Of a stretch of DNA of 64,000 bases, positions 4,912-46,112 are shown one piece after another. Location: positions 34,299-98,298 of the forward strand of contig JBAVOO010000037.1 in the NCBI GenBank assembly GCA_049692125.1. Direction: 5' to 3'. The notes below the pieces were generated by a model. The model had not been told where the DNA came from. It did no database searches and saw only the letters and a program-made list of their open reading frames with translations. How positions within the stretch are numbered: the first letter of the stretch is position 1; each line of letters opens with the position of its first letter. Source of the stretch: Verrucomicrobiia bacterium. Lineage in GTDB: Bacteria > Verrucomicrobiota > Verrucomicrobiia > Limisphaerales > UBA11358. Position numbers and translations under genes: made by a program.

Positions 4912-5049
4912 TGACTAATGACAAAGCACGAATGACGAAAGAATTCCCAATGTCTCAATTCCGAATCCAATCGCTGAGCCTTCGTCTTCATGGGGCATTT
5001 GCGCTTCGTCATTCTTTAGTCATTATGGTTTAGTTATTTGTCATTCTTT
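4910..5049. repeat. AATGAC-word palindromic element, copy 1 (about 130 bp)
   Basis: aatgactaatgac..cgaatgacgaaagaat....gcttcgtcattctttagtcattatggtttagttatttgtcatt. The left-arm words (aatgacgaa, aatgactaa) are mirrored by the right-arm words (ttcgtcatt, ttagtcatt). It fills the spacer between the adaptor stop and the MFS start. Sibling copies lie at 6316-6441 and 31632-31759. Confidence 0.85.
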
Positions 5050-6315: not shown

Positions 6316-6441
6316 AAATGACTAATTCCTAAATCCTAATGACGAAAGAATGACGAAGCTCGAATGACAAATTACCAAAGCCGTTCGTCATTTGGAAATT
6401 TTGGAATTCTTTAGTCATTCGTCATTATGGTTTAGTCATTC
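6316..6441. repeat. AATGAC-word palindromic element, copy 2
   Basis: aaatgactaattcctaaatcctaatgacgaaagaatgacgaagc...gttcgtcatttgg...attctttagtcattcgtcattatggtttagtcatt. The 3' 35 nt are identical to copy 3. The element contains the stop codon of the RND gene (..N D stop = aatgactaa). Confidence 0.85.
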
Positions 6442-9539: not shown

Positions 9540-9640
9540 AGGGGAAACATCGAACACCCAACATTGAACGTCCAACATCCAATGAGTTTCAAATGCCGAA
9601 ACATTGGATGTTCGATGTTGGTTGTTGGATGTTGATTGTT
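9540..9640. repeat. GGATGTT-word hairpin element between the adaptor stop and the RND start
   Basis: The left arm aacatcgaacacccaacattgaacgtccaacatccaatg faces the right arm cattggatgttcgatgttggttgttggatgttgattg across a 17-nt loop. The 10 loop-proximal bp are perfect. Confidence 0.8.
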
Positions 9641-13518: not shown

Positions 13519-13660
13519 AAAGCCCGAAGCTCGAAGGCCGAAACCCGGAAGAAATCCTAAAACCGAAGCCCGAAACGCGACAGCCGCTTGTGCGACAGTC
13601 TGGCCTTCGGGTTTCGGTCTTCGGGCTTCTTTCGGACCTCGGATTTCGGCCTTCGGATTT
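13519..13660. repeat. CCGAA-word long palindrome
   Basis: A perfect 12-bp outer inverted repeat cgaaggccgaaa (13532-13543) / tttcggccttcg (13644-13655). The inner arms are made of ccgaa words on the left and ttcgg words on the right. Confidence 0.8.
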
Positions 13661-16020: not shown

Positions 16021-16081
16021 GTAGGAGACGACGTAAGGAGTCTCTGACCGGACAATTGAGACTCGTGACCTCGTCTCCTAC
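16021..16081. repeat. GTAGGAGAC-type palindromic element (intergenic copy)
   Basis: Arms gtaggagacgacgtaaggagtctc (16021-16044) and gagactcgtgacctcgtctcctac (16058-16081), complementary at 21 of 24 positions, with a 13-nt loop. It belongs to the same family as the copy inside argJ (17977-18043). Confidence 0.85.
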
Positions 16082-17000
16082 AAGGAAAATAAAGTGGAAC
16101 GCGGCCGATTACGCCGCGAATTCCGGCGTGCAACAAACCTGGGCGCGCGAACTCATCGTGCAACTCCAGTTGCGCGGGGACGAGCGCATTCTCGATGTCG
16201 GCTGCGGCGACGGCAAGGTGACGGCGGAAATCGCGCGCGCCGTGCCGCGCGGTTCGGTCACCGGCGCCGATGCATCGCCGCAAATGATTGAGTTCGCGCA
16301 GAAAACCTTTTCGCCATGTGAAATTTCAAATCTGAAATTTCAAATCTGCGACGCACGAAAAATCAGTCTTGCCGCCTTGTCTTCTCCCTCTCCTCCCCAA
16401 AAGGAGGAGAGGGCCGGGGTGAGGAGGCGTTTAATTTCAAATTCAAAACCCCTCGCCCCAACCCTCTCCCCGCTTGGGCGGGGCGAGGGAGTCAAAAGCT
16501 TGCCATTCGACATTGTTTTTTCCAACGCGGCGTTGCATTGGGTGGACGATCATCGGGCATTTCTGCGGAGTGCAGCCTCGGTTTTGCGTCCCGGTGGGCG
16601 TCTCATCATTTCCTGCGGCGGCAAAGGCAACGCGCAGGATGTTTTCGTTGCGTTGCGCTCCGAGATGCGGCTCAAACGCTGGCGTGGATTTTTTCGCAAG
16701 CTGGGAAAACCATATTTTTTTTACAACCCGGCGGATTATGAAAAGTGGCTGCCACGGTTCGGCTTCAAATCGCGCGGGGTCAAACTATCGCCCAAGGGCG
16801 CGGTTTATCACGGGCGCGCCGGTTTTGCCGCGTGGCTGCGCACGACCTGGCTGCCCTACATGCAGCGCGTGCCGGAAAATTTGCGCGAGGAATTCATCGC
16901 CGCCGTCACGGATCGTTATGTGGCCAAACATCCGTTGGATGACGCCGGACAGGTTCACGTCCGGATGGTGCGGCTGGAAATTGATGCGGTGAAAAAGTAG
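16056..17000 (+). CDS. class I SAM-dependent methyltransferase (trans-aconitate methyltransferase-like) carrying an in-frame repeat insertion
   Basis: KWNAADYAANSGVQQTWARELI..RILDVGCGDGKVT (motif I) ...FDIVFSNAALHWVDDH. The start is uncertain. The only in-frame candidates (TTG 16056, GTG 16065) lie inside the upstream hairpin arm, and the family-typical MKW position reads ATA-AAG-TGG. Confidence 0.8.
   Translation: MRLVTSSPTRKIKWNAADYAANSGVQQTWARELIVQLQLRGDERILDVGCGDGKVTAEIARAVPRGSVTGADASPQMIEFAQKTFSPCEISNLKFQICDARKISLAALSSPSPPQKEERAGVRRRLISNSKPLAPTLSPLGRGEGVKSLPFDIVFSNAALHWVDDHRAFLRSAASVLRPGGRLIISCGGKGNAQDVFVALRSEMRLKRWRGFFRKLGKPYFFYNPADYEKWLPRFGFKSRGVKLSPKGAVYHGRAGFAAWLRTTWLPYMQRVPENLREEFIAAVTDRYVAKHPLDDAGQVHVRMVRLEIDAVKK
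16366..16497. repeat. double-hairpin low-complexity insertion inside the methyltransferase gene
   Basis: Hairpin A is ccctctcctcc-ccaaaa-ggaggagaggg (16386-16413). Hairpin B is cccctcgcccc-N-ggggcgaggg (16449-16489). The tandem gaaatttcaaatct x2 (about 16320-16348) is echoed by ttaatttcaaattcaaaa (about 16431-16448). It is translated as SLAALSSPSPPQKEERAGVRRRLISNSKPLAPTLSPLGRGEGVK. Confidence 0.75.
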
Positions 17001-17101
17001 CGCAGGCGTCTCGCCTGCACAGCGAGTACGTCAGCAAAAGTAATTGAATCAATACTTTCGCGCACCTGCTTCGGCGCGGTGCAGGCGGGACGCCTGCGCT
17101 A
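16998..17101. repeat. GCAGGCG double-palindrome element between the methyltransferase and argJ
   Basis: tagcgcaggcgtctcgcctgcac (16998-17020) and gtgcaggcgggacgcctgcgcta (17079-17101) are inverted copies with one mismatch. Each arm is itself a small palindrome (gcaggcg-NNN-cgcctgc). Confidence 0.85.
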
Positions 17102-17160
17102 CCATTGTCGGCTTTCGAGTTGAAAATTATTTGCGCCGCCCGCAAATTCTCCGCCGAACA

Positions 17161-18543
17161 ATGAGCAAAAATCCGTTCAAAATAATTTCAGGTTCCATCA
17201 TCGCGCCGCGGGGCTTCCTCGCCAGTGGCGTATTTTGCGACATCAAACGCCTCGGCACCGGCAAAGGTTCGCAGAAGGGCGAGAAGCGCGACCTTGCGCT
17301 CATCGTTTCCGAGGCGCCGGCGACCGTGGCGGGCATGTTCACCACCAACCAGGTTTGCGCCGCGCCGGTGAAGGTTTGTGTCGGGCGCGTGAAAAAGGGA
17401 ACCGCACAGGCCATCGTGGTCAATTCCGGCAATGCCAATGCCTGCACCGGCAAACAGGGTTTGCAGGACGCCCAGGAGATGGTTCGCTATACCGAACGCG
17501 CGTTGAACTTTCCTAAAGGCTCGGTTCTGGTCGGCTCGACCGGGCGCATCGGCGTCACACTGCCGATGGACAACGTCCGCGCGGGAATCATTGAGGCGTG
17601 CGTTGAATTGGGTTCAACGCGTGCACACGCAGCCCACGCCGTAGAAGCCATCATGACCAGCGACACGCGGCCCAAACAAATCGCGGTCGAATTCAAACTC
17701 GGCGGCAAAACCGTCCGCATCGGCGGCATGTGCAAAGGCGCGGGCATGATTCAGCCCGGCATGAGCACCACCGGTACGCGGCCTGCCGCGATGCCGCTGC
17801 ATGCGACCATGCTTTGTTTCATCACCACGGACGCAGCCATCGGGGCCAAGGTTTTACAGGCTGCATTGCAGGAAGCCGTGGCCCAGAGCTTCAATCGCAT
17901 CACCGTGGACGGCGACATGAGCACGAACGACACCGTGCTGGTGCTGGCAAATGGGCTGGCGGGAAATCCTTTAATTGTAGGAGACGAGGTAACGAGTCTC
18001 ACTTCTTCAGGAAAAATTAGAGCCTCCTCACGTCGGCTCCCACAAGATTTGGAAATTTTTCAAGCCGCTCTCAATCACGTCTGCCTCGAATTGGCCAGGA
18101 TGATTGTTCGAGATGGCGAGGGCGTGCATCGCGTCGTAACGGTGCGCGTGAACGGGGCGAAGACGGTGGCGGATGCCGATGCCGCGGCGCGCGCGGTCGC
18201 CAACAGTCCACTGGTAAAGACAAGCTGGCACGGCGGCGACCCGAATTGGGGCCGCATCATTGATGCCGTTGGTTATAGCCCGGCGACCGTGGTGGAAGAG
18301 AGAGTTGACATCGGCTACAGTGCCCCCGGCAGCAAAAAGATTTTGTGGAGCTTAAAACACGGTCAGCCGACGAAGGCAACGTTCAAACAACTTTGTGCTG
18401 CCGTCGTGCCCAAGGAATTTGATTTGCACATCAACATGAACCTCGGCAAAGCTTCCGCCGTGATTTATGCCGCCGATTTGACCGAGGAATACGTGGATTT
18501 CAACAAGGGCGATGTGGGTGATCCGGGTTCGCTAGGCGGGTAA
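17161..18543 (+). CDS. argJ: bifunctional glutamate N-acetyltransferase / amino-acid acetyltransferase
   Basis: From ATG 17161: MSKNPFKIISGSIIAPRGFLASGVFCDIKR..DLALIVSE.PATVAGMFTTNQVCAAPV...ATMLCFITTDA (autoproteolytic T site) ...DGDMSTNDTVLVLANG...DGEG..R. It contains an in-frame palindromic insert at 17977-18043. Confidence 0.93.
   Translation: MSKNPFKIISGSIIAPRGFLASGVFCDIKRLGTGKGSQKGEKRDLALIVSEAPATVAGMFTTNQVCAAPVKVCVGRVKKGTAQAIVVNSGNANACTGKQGLQDAQEMVRYTERALNFPKGSVLVGSTGRIGVTLPMDNVRAGIIEACVELGSTRAHAAHAVEAIMTSDTRPKQIAVEFKLGGKTVRIGGMCKGAGMIQPGMSTTGTRPAAMPLHATMLCFITTDAAIGAKVLQAALQEAVAQSFNRITVDGDMSTNDTVLVLANGLAGNPLIVGDEVTSLTSSGKIRASSRRLPQDLEIFQAALNHVCLELARMIVRDGEGVHRVVTVRVNGAKTVADADAAARAVANSPLVKTSWHGGDPNWGRIIDAVGYSPATVVEERVDIGYSAPGSKKILWSLKHGQPTKATFKQLCAAVVPKEFDLHINMNLGKASAVIYAADLTEEYVDFNKGDVGDPGSLGG
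17977..18043. repeat. GTAGGAGAC-type palindromic element inserted in frame in argJ
   Basis: gtaggagacgaggtaacgagtctc (17977-18000), 19 nt, then gagcctcctcacgtcggctcccac (18020-18043). The first arm differs from the 16021 copy at 2 of 24 positions and the second arm is more decayed. Confidence 0.8.
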
Positions 18544-30619: not shown

Positions 30620-30782
30620 TTTGTGGTGGCACCCGCGTCCCGCGGGTCGTTTCGGGCGTCGCGCCCGAAACGGACGGCGGGCACAGGTTATGGGTGCTTG
30701 TGCCGATTGTCAGCCATTCGCCGTTTACCGTGGCAATTCGGCGGGACGCCGAGTTGAACCCGCCGGAGGCGGGTGCTACCGA

Positions 30783-31628
30783 TTAACCGCCAATCAACTC
30801 GCGAACTTTGGATTGAATATCGCCGCCCCGCATCAACGATTCGCCCACCAGAATGGCATTGGCGCCGCACTTCTTCAATCGTTCCACATCCCCGCGTGCA
30901 TGAATGCCGCTTTCGGCGACGAGCAAAGTAGGACAGGCATCTTGCCGGTCTCCATTTTTTAATTTAGAGACAGGCTGGAAACCTGTCCTACAGTTTAACT
31001 TCGCCGCCAGCCGTTCCGTTGTCGCCAGGTCCACCTTGAAATTTTTCAAATTGCGATTGTTCACGCCGATGAGGCTGGCGCCAATTTTCATCGCCCGGGC
31101 CAATTCCGTCTCATCATGCACTTCAACCAGCGCGGCCAGACCCGCTTCCATCGCGAGGGAATGGAATTTTTTCAATTGTTCGTCGCTCAAGATGGCCACG
31201 ACGAGCAAAATCGCGTCCGCGCCCCACTCGATGGCTTCGAGGATTTGCCGCTCATCAATCATGAAGTCCTTGCGCAGCAGCGGCAGCTTCACGGCGGCGC
31301 GGATTTGACGGAGATGATCGAGCGCCCCTTGGAAAAACCTCTCGTCGGTCAGGACCGACAAACAACTTGCGCCCGCCGCTTCGTATTCCTTCGCGATGCG
31401 AACCGGATCGAAGTCCTGGCAGATCACCCCTGCCGACGGCGACGCTTTTTTGACCTCGGCAATCAGCGCGATGTCACCGTGTCGCGGGGGCTGCAACGCC
31501 GCGACAAAGTCACGCTGTTCGTCGCGTTCGAGCAACGCGTCGCGCAAATCGCCGGCGGCCAGTGCGCGCTCCGAAAGGCGGGCGACCTCCAGCTTCTTTT
31601 GTTCAACAATGGTGTCGAGAATGGACAT
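30783..31628 (-). CDS. trpC: indole-3-glycerol-phosphate synthase
   Basis: 281 aa: MSILDTIVEQKKLEV...ALIAEVKKASPSAGVI...YE.AGASCLSVLTDE.FFQG....L.......LPLLRKDFMIDE.QI.EA...GADAILL..A.L...IGVNNRNL..F.VDL.TT..L......VAESGI. It carries an in-frame palindromic insert (30928-30991). Confidence 0.93.
   Translation of the reverse strand: MSILDTIVEQKKLEVARLSERALAAGDLRDALLERDEQRDFVAALQPPRHGDIALIAEVKKASPSAGVICQDFDPVRIAKEYEAAGASCLSVLTDERFFQGALDHLRQIRAAVKLPLLRKDFMIDERQILEAIEWGADAILLVVAILSDEQLKKFHSLAMEAGLAALVEVHDETELARAMKIGASLIGVNNRNLKNFKVDLATTERLAAKLNCRTGFQPVSKLKNGDRQDACPTLLVAESGIHARGDVERLKKCGANAILVGESLMRGGDIQSKVRELIGG
30928..30991. repeat. GTAGGACAGG-type palindromic element inserted in frame in trpC
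   Basis: gtaggacaggcatcttgccggtctc (30928-30952), a 14-nt AT-rich loop, then gagacaggctggaaacctgtcctac (30967-30991). The termini gtaggacagg / cctgtcctac are perfectly complementary. The architecture (GTAGGA...GTCTC) matches the argJ element. Confidence 0.8.
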
Positions 31629-31631
31629 GGG

Positions 31632-31759
31632 AAAATGACGAATGACTAAATCCTAATGTCTAAAGAATGACGAAGCCCTAATTCCCCCAAAGCGTGCCTG
31701 TTCGTCATTTGAGCATTTGAACATTCTTTAGTCATTCGTCATTATGGTTTAGTCATTTA
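31632..31759. repeat. AATGAC-word palindromic element, copy 3
   Basis: aaaatgacgaatgactaaatcctaatgtctaaagaatgacgaagc...gttcgtcatttgagc...attctttagtcattcgtcattatggtttagtcattta. It lies between the prfB stop and the trpC start. Confidence 0.85.
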
Positions 31760-46038: not shown

Positions 46039-46112
46039 GCGGGCGTAGTTCAATGGTAGAACGGAAGCCTTCCAAGCTTCACACGTGGGTTCGATTCCCA
46101 TCGCCCGCTCCA
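46039..46112 (+). tRNA. tRNA-Gly (anticodon TCC)
   Basis: Acceptor GCGGGCG/CGCCCGC, D-arm GTTC-AATGGTA-GAAC, anticodon arm GAAGC-CTTCCAA-GCTTC (anticodon TCC), T-arm GTGGG-TTCGATT-CCCAT, discriminator T and CCA. Confidence 0.92.

Follow-up and report, generated by a model that had tools for sequence, protein, structure and literature searches.

The trpC gene, encoding indole-3-glycerol-phosphate synthase (IGPS), lies on the minus strand of a 64,000-nucleotide (nt) stretch from a Verrucomicrobiia bacterium (assembly GCA_049692125.1, contig JBAVOO010000037.1, positions 34,299 to 98,298 of the forward strand), hereafter referred to as the window, and carries within its reading frame a palindromic segment composed of two inverted repetitive extragenic palindromic (REP) units in the manner of a REPIN. 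The segment belongs to the GTAG-tagged REP superfamily by sequence and structure, and is most probably a selfish palindrome of the REPIN type that TrpC tolerates in a non-catalytic loop and that continues to evolve as a repeat. The host gene and the parts of the element are as follows.

30783..31628, minus strand: trpC (indole-3-glycerol-phosphate synthase), 281 amino acids plus stop codon, host of the insert
30928..30991, unstranded: REPIN-like element, an inverted pair of GTAG-headed REP hairpins with an AT-rich spacer, encoding TrpC C213-T234
30967..30991, minus strand: REP unit 1, located 5' on the mRNA strand, GTAG-GACAGGT-TTCCA-GCCTGTC-TC, encoding (C)RTGFQPVS
30953..30966, unstranded: AT-rich spacer of 14 nt, TAAATTAAAAAATG on the mRNA strand, encoding KLKN
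30928..30952, plus strand: REP unit 2, GTAG-GACAGGCA-TCT-TGCCgGTC-TC, encoding GDRQDACPT on the mRNA strand

A repeat finder identified an inverted repeat of 25 nt / 14 nt / 25 nt at 30928-30991, which reads on the plus strand as GTAGGACAGGCATCTTGCCGGTCTC, spacer CATTTTTTAATTTA and GAGACAGGCTGGAAACCTGTCCTAC. The arms are 80% complementary and their outermost 10 nt are perfectly so; a re-reading of the sequence thus returned the 14-nt AT-rich loop and the perfect 10-nt termini that the initial annotation had described. Each arm forms a hairpin of its own with a GTAG head, the stem of unit 2 carrying a single mismatch (G for T), and the element is therefore a REPIN-like dimer of two inverted REP units. 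Folding of the coding-strand RNA, proposed earlier as a check, gave -36.6 kcal/mol as compared to -15.7 +/- 3.0 kcal/mol for 200 dinucleotide-preserving shuffles (z = -7.0), none of which was as stable. The pattern GTAGGA N30-60 TCCTAC occurs twice in the window (at 16021 and 30928) against an expectation of 0.00. The element and the encoded protein are identical in four independent assemblies (L001-L004; L numbers denote stretches from other assemblies and metagenomes), which excludes an assembly artefact. No target-site duplication was found at the flanks agttaaact / tttgctcgt, nor any direct repeat in 35 orthologous inserts, and the sequence following the insert differs between orthologues (TTTGCTC, GCTGCTT, GCTCGTC). 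A promoter and terminator scan revealed no such site at the element, and a search of Rfam at gathering thresholds gave no match to it, two tRNAs being the only matches in the window.

The host gene is a genuine trpC, as had been claimed, and aligns end to end with the Pfam IGPS family PF00218 (residues 4-278 to profile positions 1-254, E = 1.8e-87). The element is read through in frame as ..KLNCRTGFQPVSKLKNGDRQDACPTLLVAESGI.., corresponding to residues C213-T234; two of its three frames are open, and the frame in use avoids both the TAG of GTAG and the TAA codons of the spacer. In HMMER alignments with solved IGPS structures, about 19 extra residues are present between ..TTERLAAKL and LLVAESGI, whereas the same stretch comprises 3-6 residues, typically P-x-x plus 1-3, in about 150 TrpC cluster representatives across bacteria. 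This bears out the earlier statement that a few residues normally join the flanking elements, and alignment with the orthologues shows the segment to be missing from the distant ones, so that it is not a conserved part of the protein there. Two details of the initial annotation require revision. The insert does lie between helix alpha6 and strand beta7, but the 'L.TT..L' motif taken for a strand is the start of helix alpha6; and the extra residues do not represent a clean insertion of 64 nt, about 6 codons of the empty-site relatives being replaced by 25, with a net gain of 57 nt.

An earlier AlphaFold run on 48 close homologues was unusable (pLDDT, the predicted local distance difference test score, of 46), and a deeper alignment was used for the AlphaFold (AF2) model considered here (mean pLDDT 92.3, predicted TM score 0.91). 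In this model, which had been suggested as a check for a tolerated surface loop, alpha6 spans residues 202-214 and beta7 residues 235-239, and the insert between them (215-234) is predicted as coil with pLDDT 59-72. Comparison with IGPS crystal structures using Foldseek gave TM scores of 0.88-0.92, with the barrel intact. In TIM barrels the alpha-to-beta loops face away from the active site; the insert would therefore be a surface addition remote from catalysis, and it encodes a hydrophilic, probably disordered loop on the non-catalytic face.

The best 120 TrpC homologues (75-92% identity), which derive from Verrucomicrobiota metagenome-assembled genomes (MAGs) and from peat or soil metagenomes, all carry an insert at the alpha6-beta7 loop, although its form differs; DNA was obtained from 80 related metagenome loci. 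About 65 distinct insert variants were recognised, all of which are open and of lengths that keep the downstream frame. The REPIN-type inserts are 49, 64 or 70 nt long, with GTAG, GTGG and occasionally ATAG or GCAG heads, and with a spacer of 14 or 20 nt in the long forms and none in the 49-nt forms. Their stem variants include GACAGGC, GCGCAGGC, GCACAGGC and GCACGGGC; the arms are identical in L135, L201 and L143 and represent different alleles in the window, L129 and L127. At the protein level, the motifs TG(F/V)xPVS and DR(Q/R)DAC(P/A)T are nearly invariant in the closest homologues. Other relatives carry unrelated repeats at the same loop: tandem heptamers (L149-L161, L170, L176, L178; L151/L185), such as (GTCACTC)x4 encoding FSSPVTRHSS and (CTCAACC)x4 encoding FSTLNPQPST, which form no hairpin (-9 to -25 kcal/mol), or a hairpin with heptamer arms, (AAGATGG)x4 ... 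(CCATCTT)x4, encoding MEDGRWKM..ILNSPSS (-40 to -45 kcal/mol; L147 at about 1478-1603, L160, L174 and L181). A few sites are empty (KIGSEKILVAESGI).

The alpha6-beta7 loop of TrpC appears generally permissive, and unrelated, sometimes long inserts were also observed there in four cluster representatives with 52-67% identity (P0121, P0135, P0134 and P0178), that of P0121 consisting of 40 GC-rich residues. Six divergent representatives (P0123, P0126, P0128, P0129, P0141 and P0158) are apparently frameshifted from the insert onward, with for example ..RRERHPHARG where VAESGIHTRA is expected; errors of sequencing or assembly at the hairpin could account for this, or the genes could be true pseudogenes.

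The pattern of conservation distinguishes the element from the gene around it. Outside the loop, the identities at the three codon positions among the orthologues are 0.86/0.91/0.60, indicating purifying selection on trpC, while the corresponding values in the arms of 12 GTAG-type orthologues are 0.87/0.91/0.83. The usual relaxation at third positions is thus missing in the arms, a sign of nucleotide-level constraint or homogenisation and not of constraint on the peptide. In an alignment of 18 REPIN-type inserts, which are mutually related and represent fewer independent events than the cell counts imply, the local REP hairpins are paired in 97.6% of the cells, 6 of their 16 pairs are changed on both sides, and their covariation score was reached by none of 500 shuffles; the long helix between the arms is paired in 93.8% of the cells. 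At the discriminating N:N' positions the local pair always forms (GC in 12, AU in 3 and UA in 3), whereas the inter-arm pair fails in 12 of the 18, and the single REP hairpin, of the general form GACAGGC-N / TCN / N'-GCCTGTC, is therefore the conserved unit.

Whole units also change between close relatives, as seen in comparisons of the closest pairs, which were used in place of a neighbour-joining tree. The trpC genes of the window and L125 are 95.3% identical outside the loop and differ at only six positions less than 150 nt from the site, and the insert is the 64-nt GACAGG form in the window and a 49-nt form with a left unit of the GCGCAGGCG subtype in L125. The same contrast is observed between L127 and L134 (93.9% identical), in which the right units match without a difference over 22 nt. 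By insert form, the window goes with L127 and L125 with L134, contrary to the similarity of the flanks. Since the left units differ by three compensatory pairs together, and each of the two is common as an allele of the genome-wide family, an exchange of the whole unit would explain the contrast better than point mutation; it could have occurred by gene conversion from another copy, recombination between strains or transposase-mediated strand exchange.

Recurrence of the palindrome elsewhere, on which the initial annotation had made its interpretation depend, was examined by a search for exact GTAGGACAGG-N35-65-CCTGTCCTAC in one genome per GTDB species, the counts being those of the matches listed. 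At least 120 stretches were identified in Verrucomicrobiota, Planctomycetota, Acidobacteriota, cyanobacteria, Armatimonadota and others, with several copies in some MAGs (such as SPRUCE 324). Every one of the listed stretches is an inverted pair of GTAG-GACAGGC hairpins, the GTAG head being built into the search pattern. Their apical alleles are self-complementary and form a small set (GCATCTTGC, GCATCCTGC, GCGTCCCGC, GCGTCGCGC, GCGTCTCGC, GCTTCCAGC and GCTTCAGC), and the core of the trpC element (GTCTC / AT-rich spacer / GAGAC) is found again in the verrucomicrobial copies. Taken with the further copies in the window described below, these results confirm the original observation and support its interpretation. 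Two contigs labelled Bifidobacteriaceae (L017 and L110), possibly mis-binned, contain REPINs with a core of the verrucomicrobial style, one of them inside an open reading frame (ORF) of 1127 amino acids.

In an Armatimonadia MAG (L122), the REPIN at 615-695 directly adjoins a gene for a REP-associated tyrosine transposase (RAYT), with a score of 100 bits against the NCBIfam equivalog NF047646 (cutoff 80); JGI uses the name RayT for its relatives, each of which is bordered by a REP type of its own. RayT homologues on contigs of the Armatimonadota type (L205:1900-2700 and L208-L210) have their own REPs on both sides, in the form of GTAGGACGATCGTCTCGATCGTCC and CCTACGGTGCGGTCTTGGAAGACCGCAGG arrays, and these contigs illustrate the co-variation of REPs with RAYTs.

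In other Verrucomicrobiota MAGs, members of the family lie in frame within the Pfam domains of many enzymes, including a CopA-type ATPase, GlnRS, IspG, LeuRS (in the editing domain), PurM, KsgA, a class-III aminotransferase, a radical-SAM enzyme and a U32 peptidase. Two open frames give rise to recurrent peptides, VGQASRLS...ETGATPVL and RRTGFQPVS...DRQDACPT. IspG (GcpE) is a second case of orthologous intragenic persistence with a change of unit: two Verrucomicrobiota MAGs (L070:5068-5148 and L115:2314-2391) carry a REPIN at the identical site with different arm alleles, encoding RRTGFQPVS..ETGGAPVLL and RRTGVAPVS..ETGATPVLL, respectively. Among the matches listed (L005-L124), the copies lying inside an ORF that extends for 90 codons or more on either side of the element amount to 14 of 23 in Verrucomicrobiota, 1 of 30 in Planctomycetota and 0 of 40 in Acidobacteriota, a contrast between phyla that is no more than indicative. 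A second insertion hot spot of TrpC, after residue ~50 and before strand beta1, is occupied by other REPIN families in ten loci (L141, L143, L155, L156, L163, L168, L169, L170, L172 and L176); the fillers are GTAGCAGCCGACGTGAGGAGGCTC.., which resembles the argJ copy described below, and clusters of GTAGCGCAGCCGTCCCGGCTGC units of up to 35 amino acids (-76 kcal/mol).

The GTAG-tagged REP superfamily was defined by Di Nocera, De Gregorio and Rocco (2013, BMC Genomics 14:522; PMC3733652), and in-frame dimers of such REPs in Verrucomicrobia are already described there. The GTAG REPs of that study share with the trpC element a GTAG or GTGG head, a stem of 6-9 bp, a short loop and tolerance of G-T pairs, and with its family the division into sub-families by complementary stem residues and the inverted homodimers and heterodimers; the GTGG variant was found in Opitutus terrae, and the TAG of the head may serve as a stop codon, as it does in the element at 16997 of the window (PMC3733652). 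The trpC units each carry the GTAG head, next to which they have the short stem (about 5-13 bp in the superfamily), the small loop and the complementary sub-family changes, and they form an inverted pair of 25-nt arms with a 14-nt spacer. They are not extragenic, but their place inside a gene is no bar to membership, because this exception is documented: intragenic GTAG REPs reach their highest number in the verrucomicrobium O. terrae, with over half of the copies in dimers or groups, and encode 20-30 residues (PMC3733652). The present host belongs to a different, uncultured lineage of Verrucomicrobiota, the GACAGGC stem is likened by architecture to the superfamily, which comprises 24 numbered families in that paper, and neither persistence with unit turnover at one orthologous intragenic site nor the contrast between phyla in the intragenic fraction is described in it (PMC3733652).

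As in the REPIN-RAYT system (Bertels and Rainey 2011, PLoS Genet 7:e1002132; bioRxiv 10.1101/2021.07.10.451892), two inverted REPs form a longer hairpin, the family has many copies dispersed over the genomes searched, a single-copy RAYT gene is flanked by cognate REPs in L122, L205 and L208, and the elements persist for long in lineages. REPINs are almost exclusively extragenic according to the REPIN literature, in contrast to the 14 of 23 verrucomicrobial copies given above. Classical MITEs (miniature transposable elements with inverted repeats; Correia, ERIC, Nezha and others) are likewise small, non-autonomous, hairpin-forming and occasionally intragenic, but the trpC element lacks a target-site duplication (flanks ..aaact / tttgc..) and its arms are themselves GTAG-headed hairpins, the signature of REPs and not of terminal inverted repeats derived from insertion sequences. 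The palindromic elements of Rickettsia (RPEs), reportedly described by Ogata et al. in 2000, resemble it as selfish in-frame palindromes in many unrelated housekeeping genes that make fold-compatible surface additions. They are the classic in-frame palindromic repeats of housekeeping genes (PMC10969869), though RPE-1, of ~100-150 bp and with a conserved peptide, shares behaviour alone with the 64-nt element, and the short elements RPE-4 and RPE-6 are members of the CGTC-tagged superfamily and not of the GTAG one (PMC3733652). Three identities were accordingly rejected: that of an intrinsic terminator (a GC-rich hairpin with a T-run after it), in the absence of a terminator-like site and with a variable 3' flank; that of a MITE with target-site duplication, no direct repeat being present in the orthologous inserts; and that of an RPE-1 type repeat, given that the element measures 64 nt, and 49-70 nt in its relatives, and resides in Verrucomicrobiota.

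The reading of the element as a tolerated selfish REPIN implies a history of the following kind. The unit of the family, GTAG + GACAGGC-N-TCN-N'-GCCTGTC + TC of ~25 nt, inverted around an AT-rich spacer, would be a non-autonomous mobile element that entered the DNA of the alpha6-beta7 loop in the ancestor of an uncultured clade of Verrucomicrobiota. The insertion may have survived because it was stop-free in two of three frames, lay in frame and added a hydrophilic loop that left the enzyme working. The genome would since have treated it as a REPIN, keeping the hairpins and exchanging whole REP units for other alleles drawn from the family across the genome, probably through gene conversion or RAYT-mediated strand transfer. 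Mobilisation by a RAYT in the source genome, the mechanism by which units are replaced and the neutrality of the insert for the enzyme are parts of this history that we infer. Several points weigh against it. The high third-position conservation could result from recent homogenisation and not from selection on structure, and short tracts of homologous recombination between strains could mimic the replacement of units; the flanks are identical for only ~40-70 nt on each side of the insert in the compared pairs, and the loop-masked neighbour-joining tree of TrpC lacks the resolution needed to map gains and losses or to count independent events. No clean pair of empty and filled sites is available, and with ~6 codons replaced the original insertion junctions are not recoverable. 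Motif and tblastn screens found no RAYT gene in the window or the trpC loci, L122 being the sole hit over the window and 1.4 Mb of loci; a protein search from the L122 RAYT gave RayT of the Armatimonadota type and none from Verrucomicrobiota, and the RAYT link of the GACAGGC family comes from one genome of another phylum.

Three alternatives were considered. The hairpin could be retained for a function to the host as a nucleic acid, by slowing the ribosome between alpha6 and beta7, stabilising the transcript or providing a DNA structure for the RAYT/REPIN system, in which case any stable hairpin at the loop would do, and its retention would reflect selection in place of selfish persistence. 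The high third-position identity of the arms, stem changes that are compensatory and tolerant of G-U pairs, the unrelated heptamer-arm hairpin found at the same loop elsewhere and the presence of some insert in all of the best 120 homologues are in keeping with such a role. Close relatives nevertheless carry non-hairpin heptamers or nothing at the loop (L166, L167, L180 and L187), so that the hairpin is not required for TrpC in the clade; the same element occurs at unrelated positions of many unrelated genes, and terminator-like, promoter-like and Rfam signals were all not found. We regard a role of this kind as rather improbable. A loop that serves the clade's TrpC as a protein-level adaptation, for interaction or regulation, with the palindrome as a historical trace, has in its favour the two nearly invariant peptide motifs. 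It is hard to reconcile with the insert's conservation without codon periodicity, with the wholesale swap of the peptide along with the REP allele (for example from NCRTGFQPVS to NSSAGVPPAP) in a pair of genes with 95% identity, with the same peptides in unrelated enzymes, with relatives in which the loop is absent or of unrelated sequence, and with the low-confidence coil modelled on the non-catalytic face, and is considered very improbable.

Slighter still is the chance that the segment is not translated at all, through ribosome bypass (as in T4 gene 60 or the mitochondrial 'byp' elements), removal from the RNA or an error of assembly, as might be suggested by the strong hairpin and the apparent frameshifts here in some divergent representatives (P0123, P0126, P0128 and P0129); the variants are without exception open and frame-preserving, four assemblies agree on the element, and the avoidance of the TAG of GTAG and the spacer TAA is as expected under selected read-through. 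Translational bypass of the 'byp' or T4 gene 60 kind was rejected in particular, since such inserts are free to break the reading frame and typically carry stops, and every trpC variant is stop-free and in frame.

The trpC locus provides a dated series of one intragenic REPIN over more than 60 related genes, at odds with the common picture of REPs and REPINs as strictly extragenic. The series shows that an essential TIM-barrel enzyme can host such an element for long, that the element evolves as a repeat (hairpins kept, units swapped) and not as a protein, and that a single protein loop can be colonised repeatedly by different repeat families. For annotators, it is a warning that peptides such as DRQDACPT, RTGFQPVS and VGQASRLS in Verrucomicrobiota proteins are repeat-encoded, and the loop series offers a natural test set for the tolerance of proteins to random loop sequence. 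We know of no account, in the work of Di Nocera and colleagues or in the RPE and REPIN papers, of persistence at an orthologous site with unit swapping, of nucleotide-level conservation in a coding region, of one loop colonised by unrelated repeat families or of the contrast between phyla; as drawn from the sequences compared here, all four are provisional, pending whole-genome support. A bolder extension, which we consider unlikely though less so than any of the alternatives above, holds that in this verrucomicrobial lineage the loops of essential genes are the main habitat of REPINs and the TrpC alpha6-beta7 loop a long-lived landing pad, with units repeatedly replaced by transposase-mediated strand exchange and with selection on the DNA or the RNA preserving the hairpins. 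If true, housekeeping proteins would be a reservoir that shields the repeat population from deletion, and the repeats a steady source of new surface loops.

The window contains further repeats of this kind.

16021..16081, unstranded: 61-nt intergenic family member (GTAGGAGACG subtype), with argC on one side and a methyltransferase gene on the other
16997..17102, unstranded: intergenic family member of the GTAGCGCAGGCG subtype, 106 nt
17977..18043, plus strand: decayed in-frame family member in argJ, GTAGGAGACGAGGTAACGAGTCTC ... GAGCCTCCTCACGTCGGCTCCCAC
30626..30779, unstranded: clustered hairpins headed by GTGG or GTAG, which fill the convergent pdxA-trpC spacer

Along with the trpC element, the first three make four family members in the window, to which the REP cluster is added; REP-like hairpins number 10 as compared to 2.0 +/- 1.3 in Markov controls. 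The GTAGGA..GTCTC / GAGAC..TCCTAC frame noted in the initial annotation is indeed common to the trpC element, the 16021 element and the decayed argJ copy, and the two or more sequence subtypes foreseen there have become several. The upstream methyltransferase ORF takes its stop codon from the TAG in the head (GTAG) of the 16997 element, whose GTAGCGCAGGCG subtype also fills the trpC loop of the relatives L125, L134, L139 and L142. The argJ copy explains ~25 residues that are not present in solved ArgJ/OAT structures. As compared to solved ornithine acetyltransferases, ArgJ has a further ~13 extra residues (STTGTRPAAMPLH) directly before the ATML self-cleavage motif (window 17749-17810), where the DNA is prone to hairpins and has no obvious REP.

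Repeats of other kinds were also observed. The methyltransferase ORF (16056-17000) contains at 16370-16500 a third in-frame hairpin insert, of a different, GC-rich kind, CCCTCTCCTCCCCAAAAGGAGGAGAGGG and CCCTCGCCCC..GGGGCGAGGG, translated as ..PSPPQKEERAGVRRR..PLGRGEG.. (-73 kcal/mol), which splits the methyltransferase domain, with Pfam matches to either side. Intergenic hairpins armed with heptamer arrays, such as AATGACG/AATGACT.. and AACATCG/AACACCC.., occur at 683-765, 4917-5045, 6317-6440, 9546-9640, 13520-13655 and 31634-31757, one of them lying between prfB and the trpC start (-35 kcal/mol), and constitute a repeat class separate from the GTAG REPs. The two tRNA genes of the window are located at 2323-2396 and 46039-46109.

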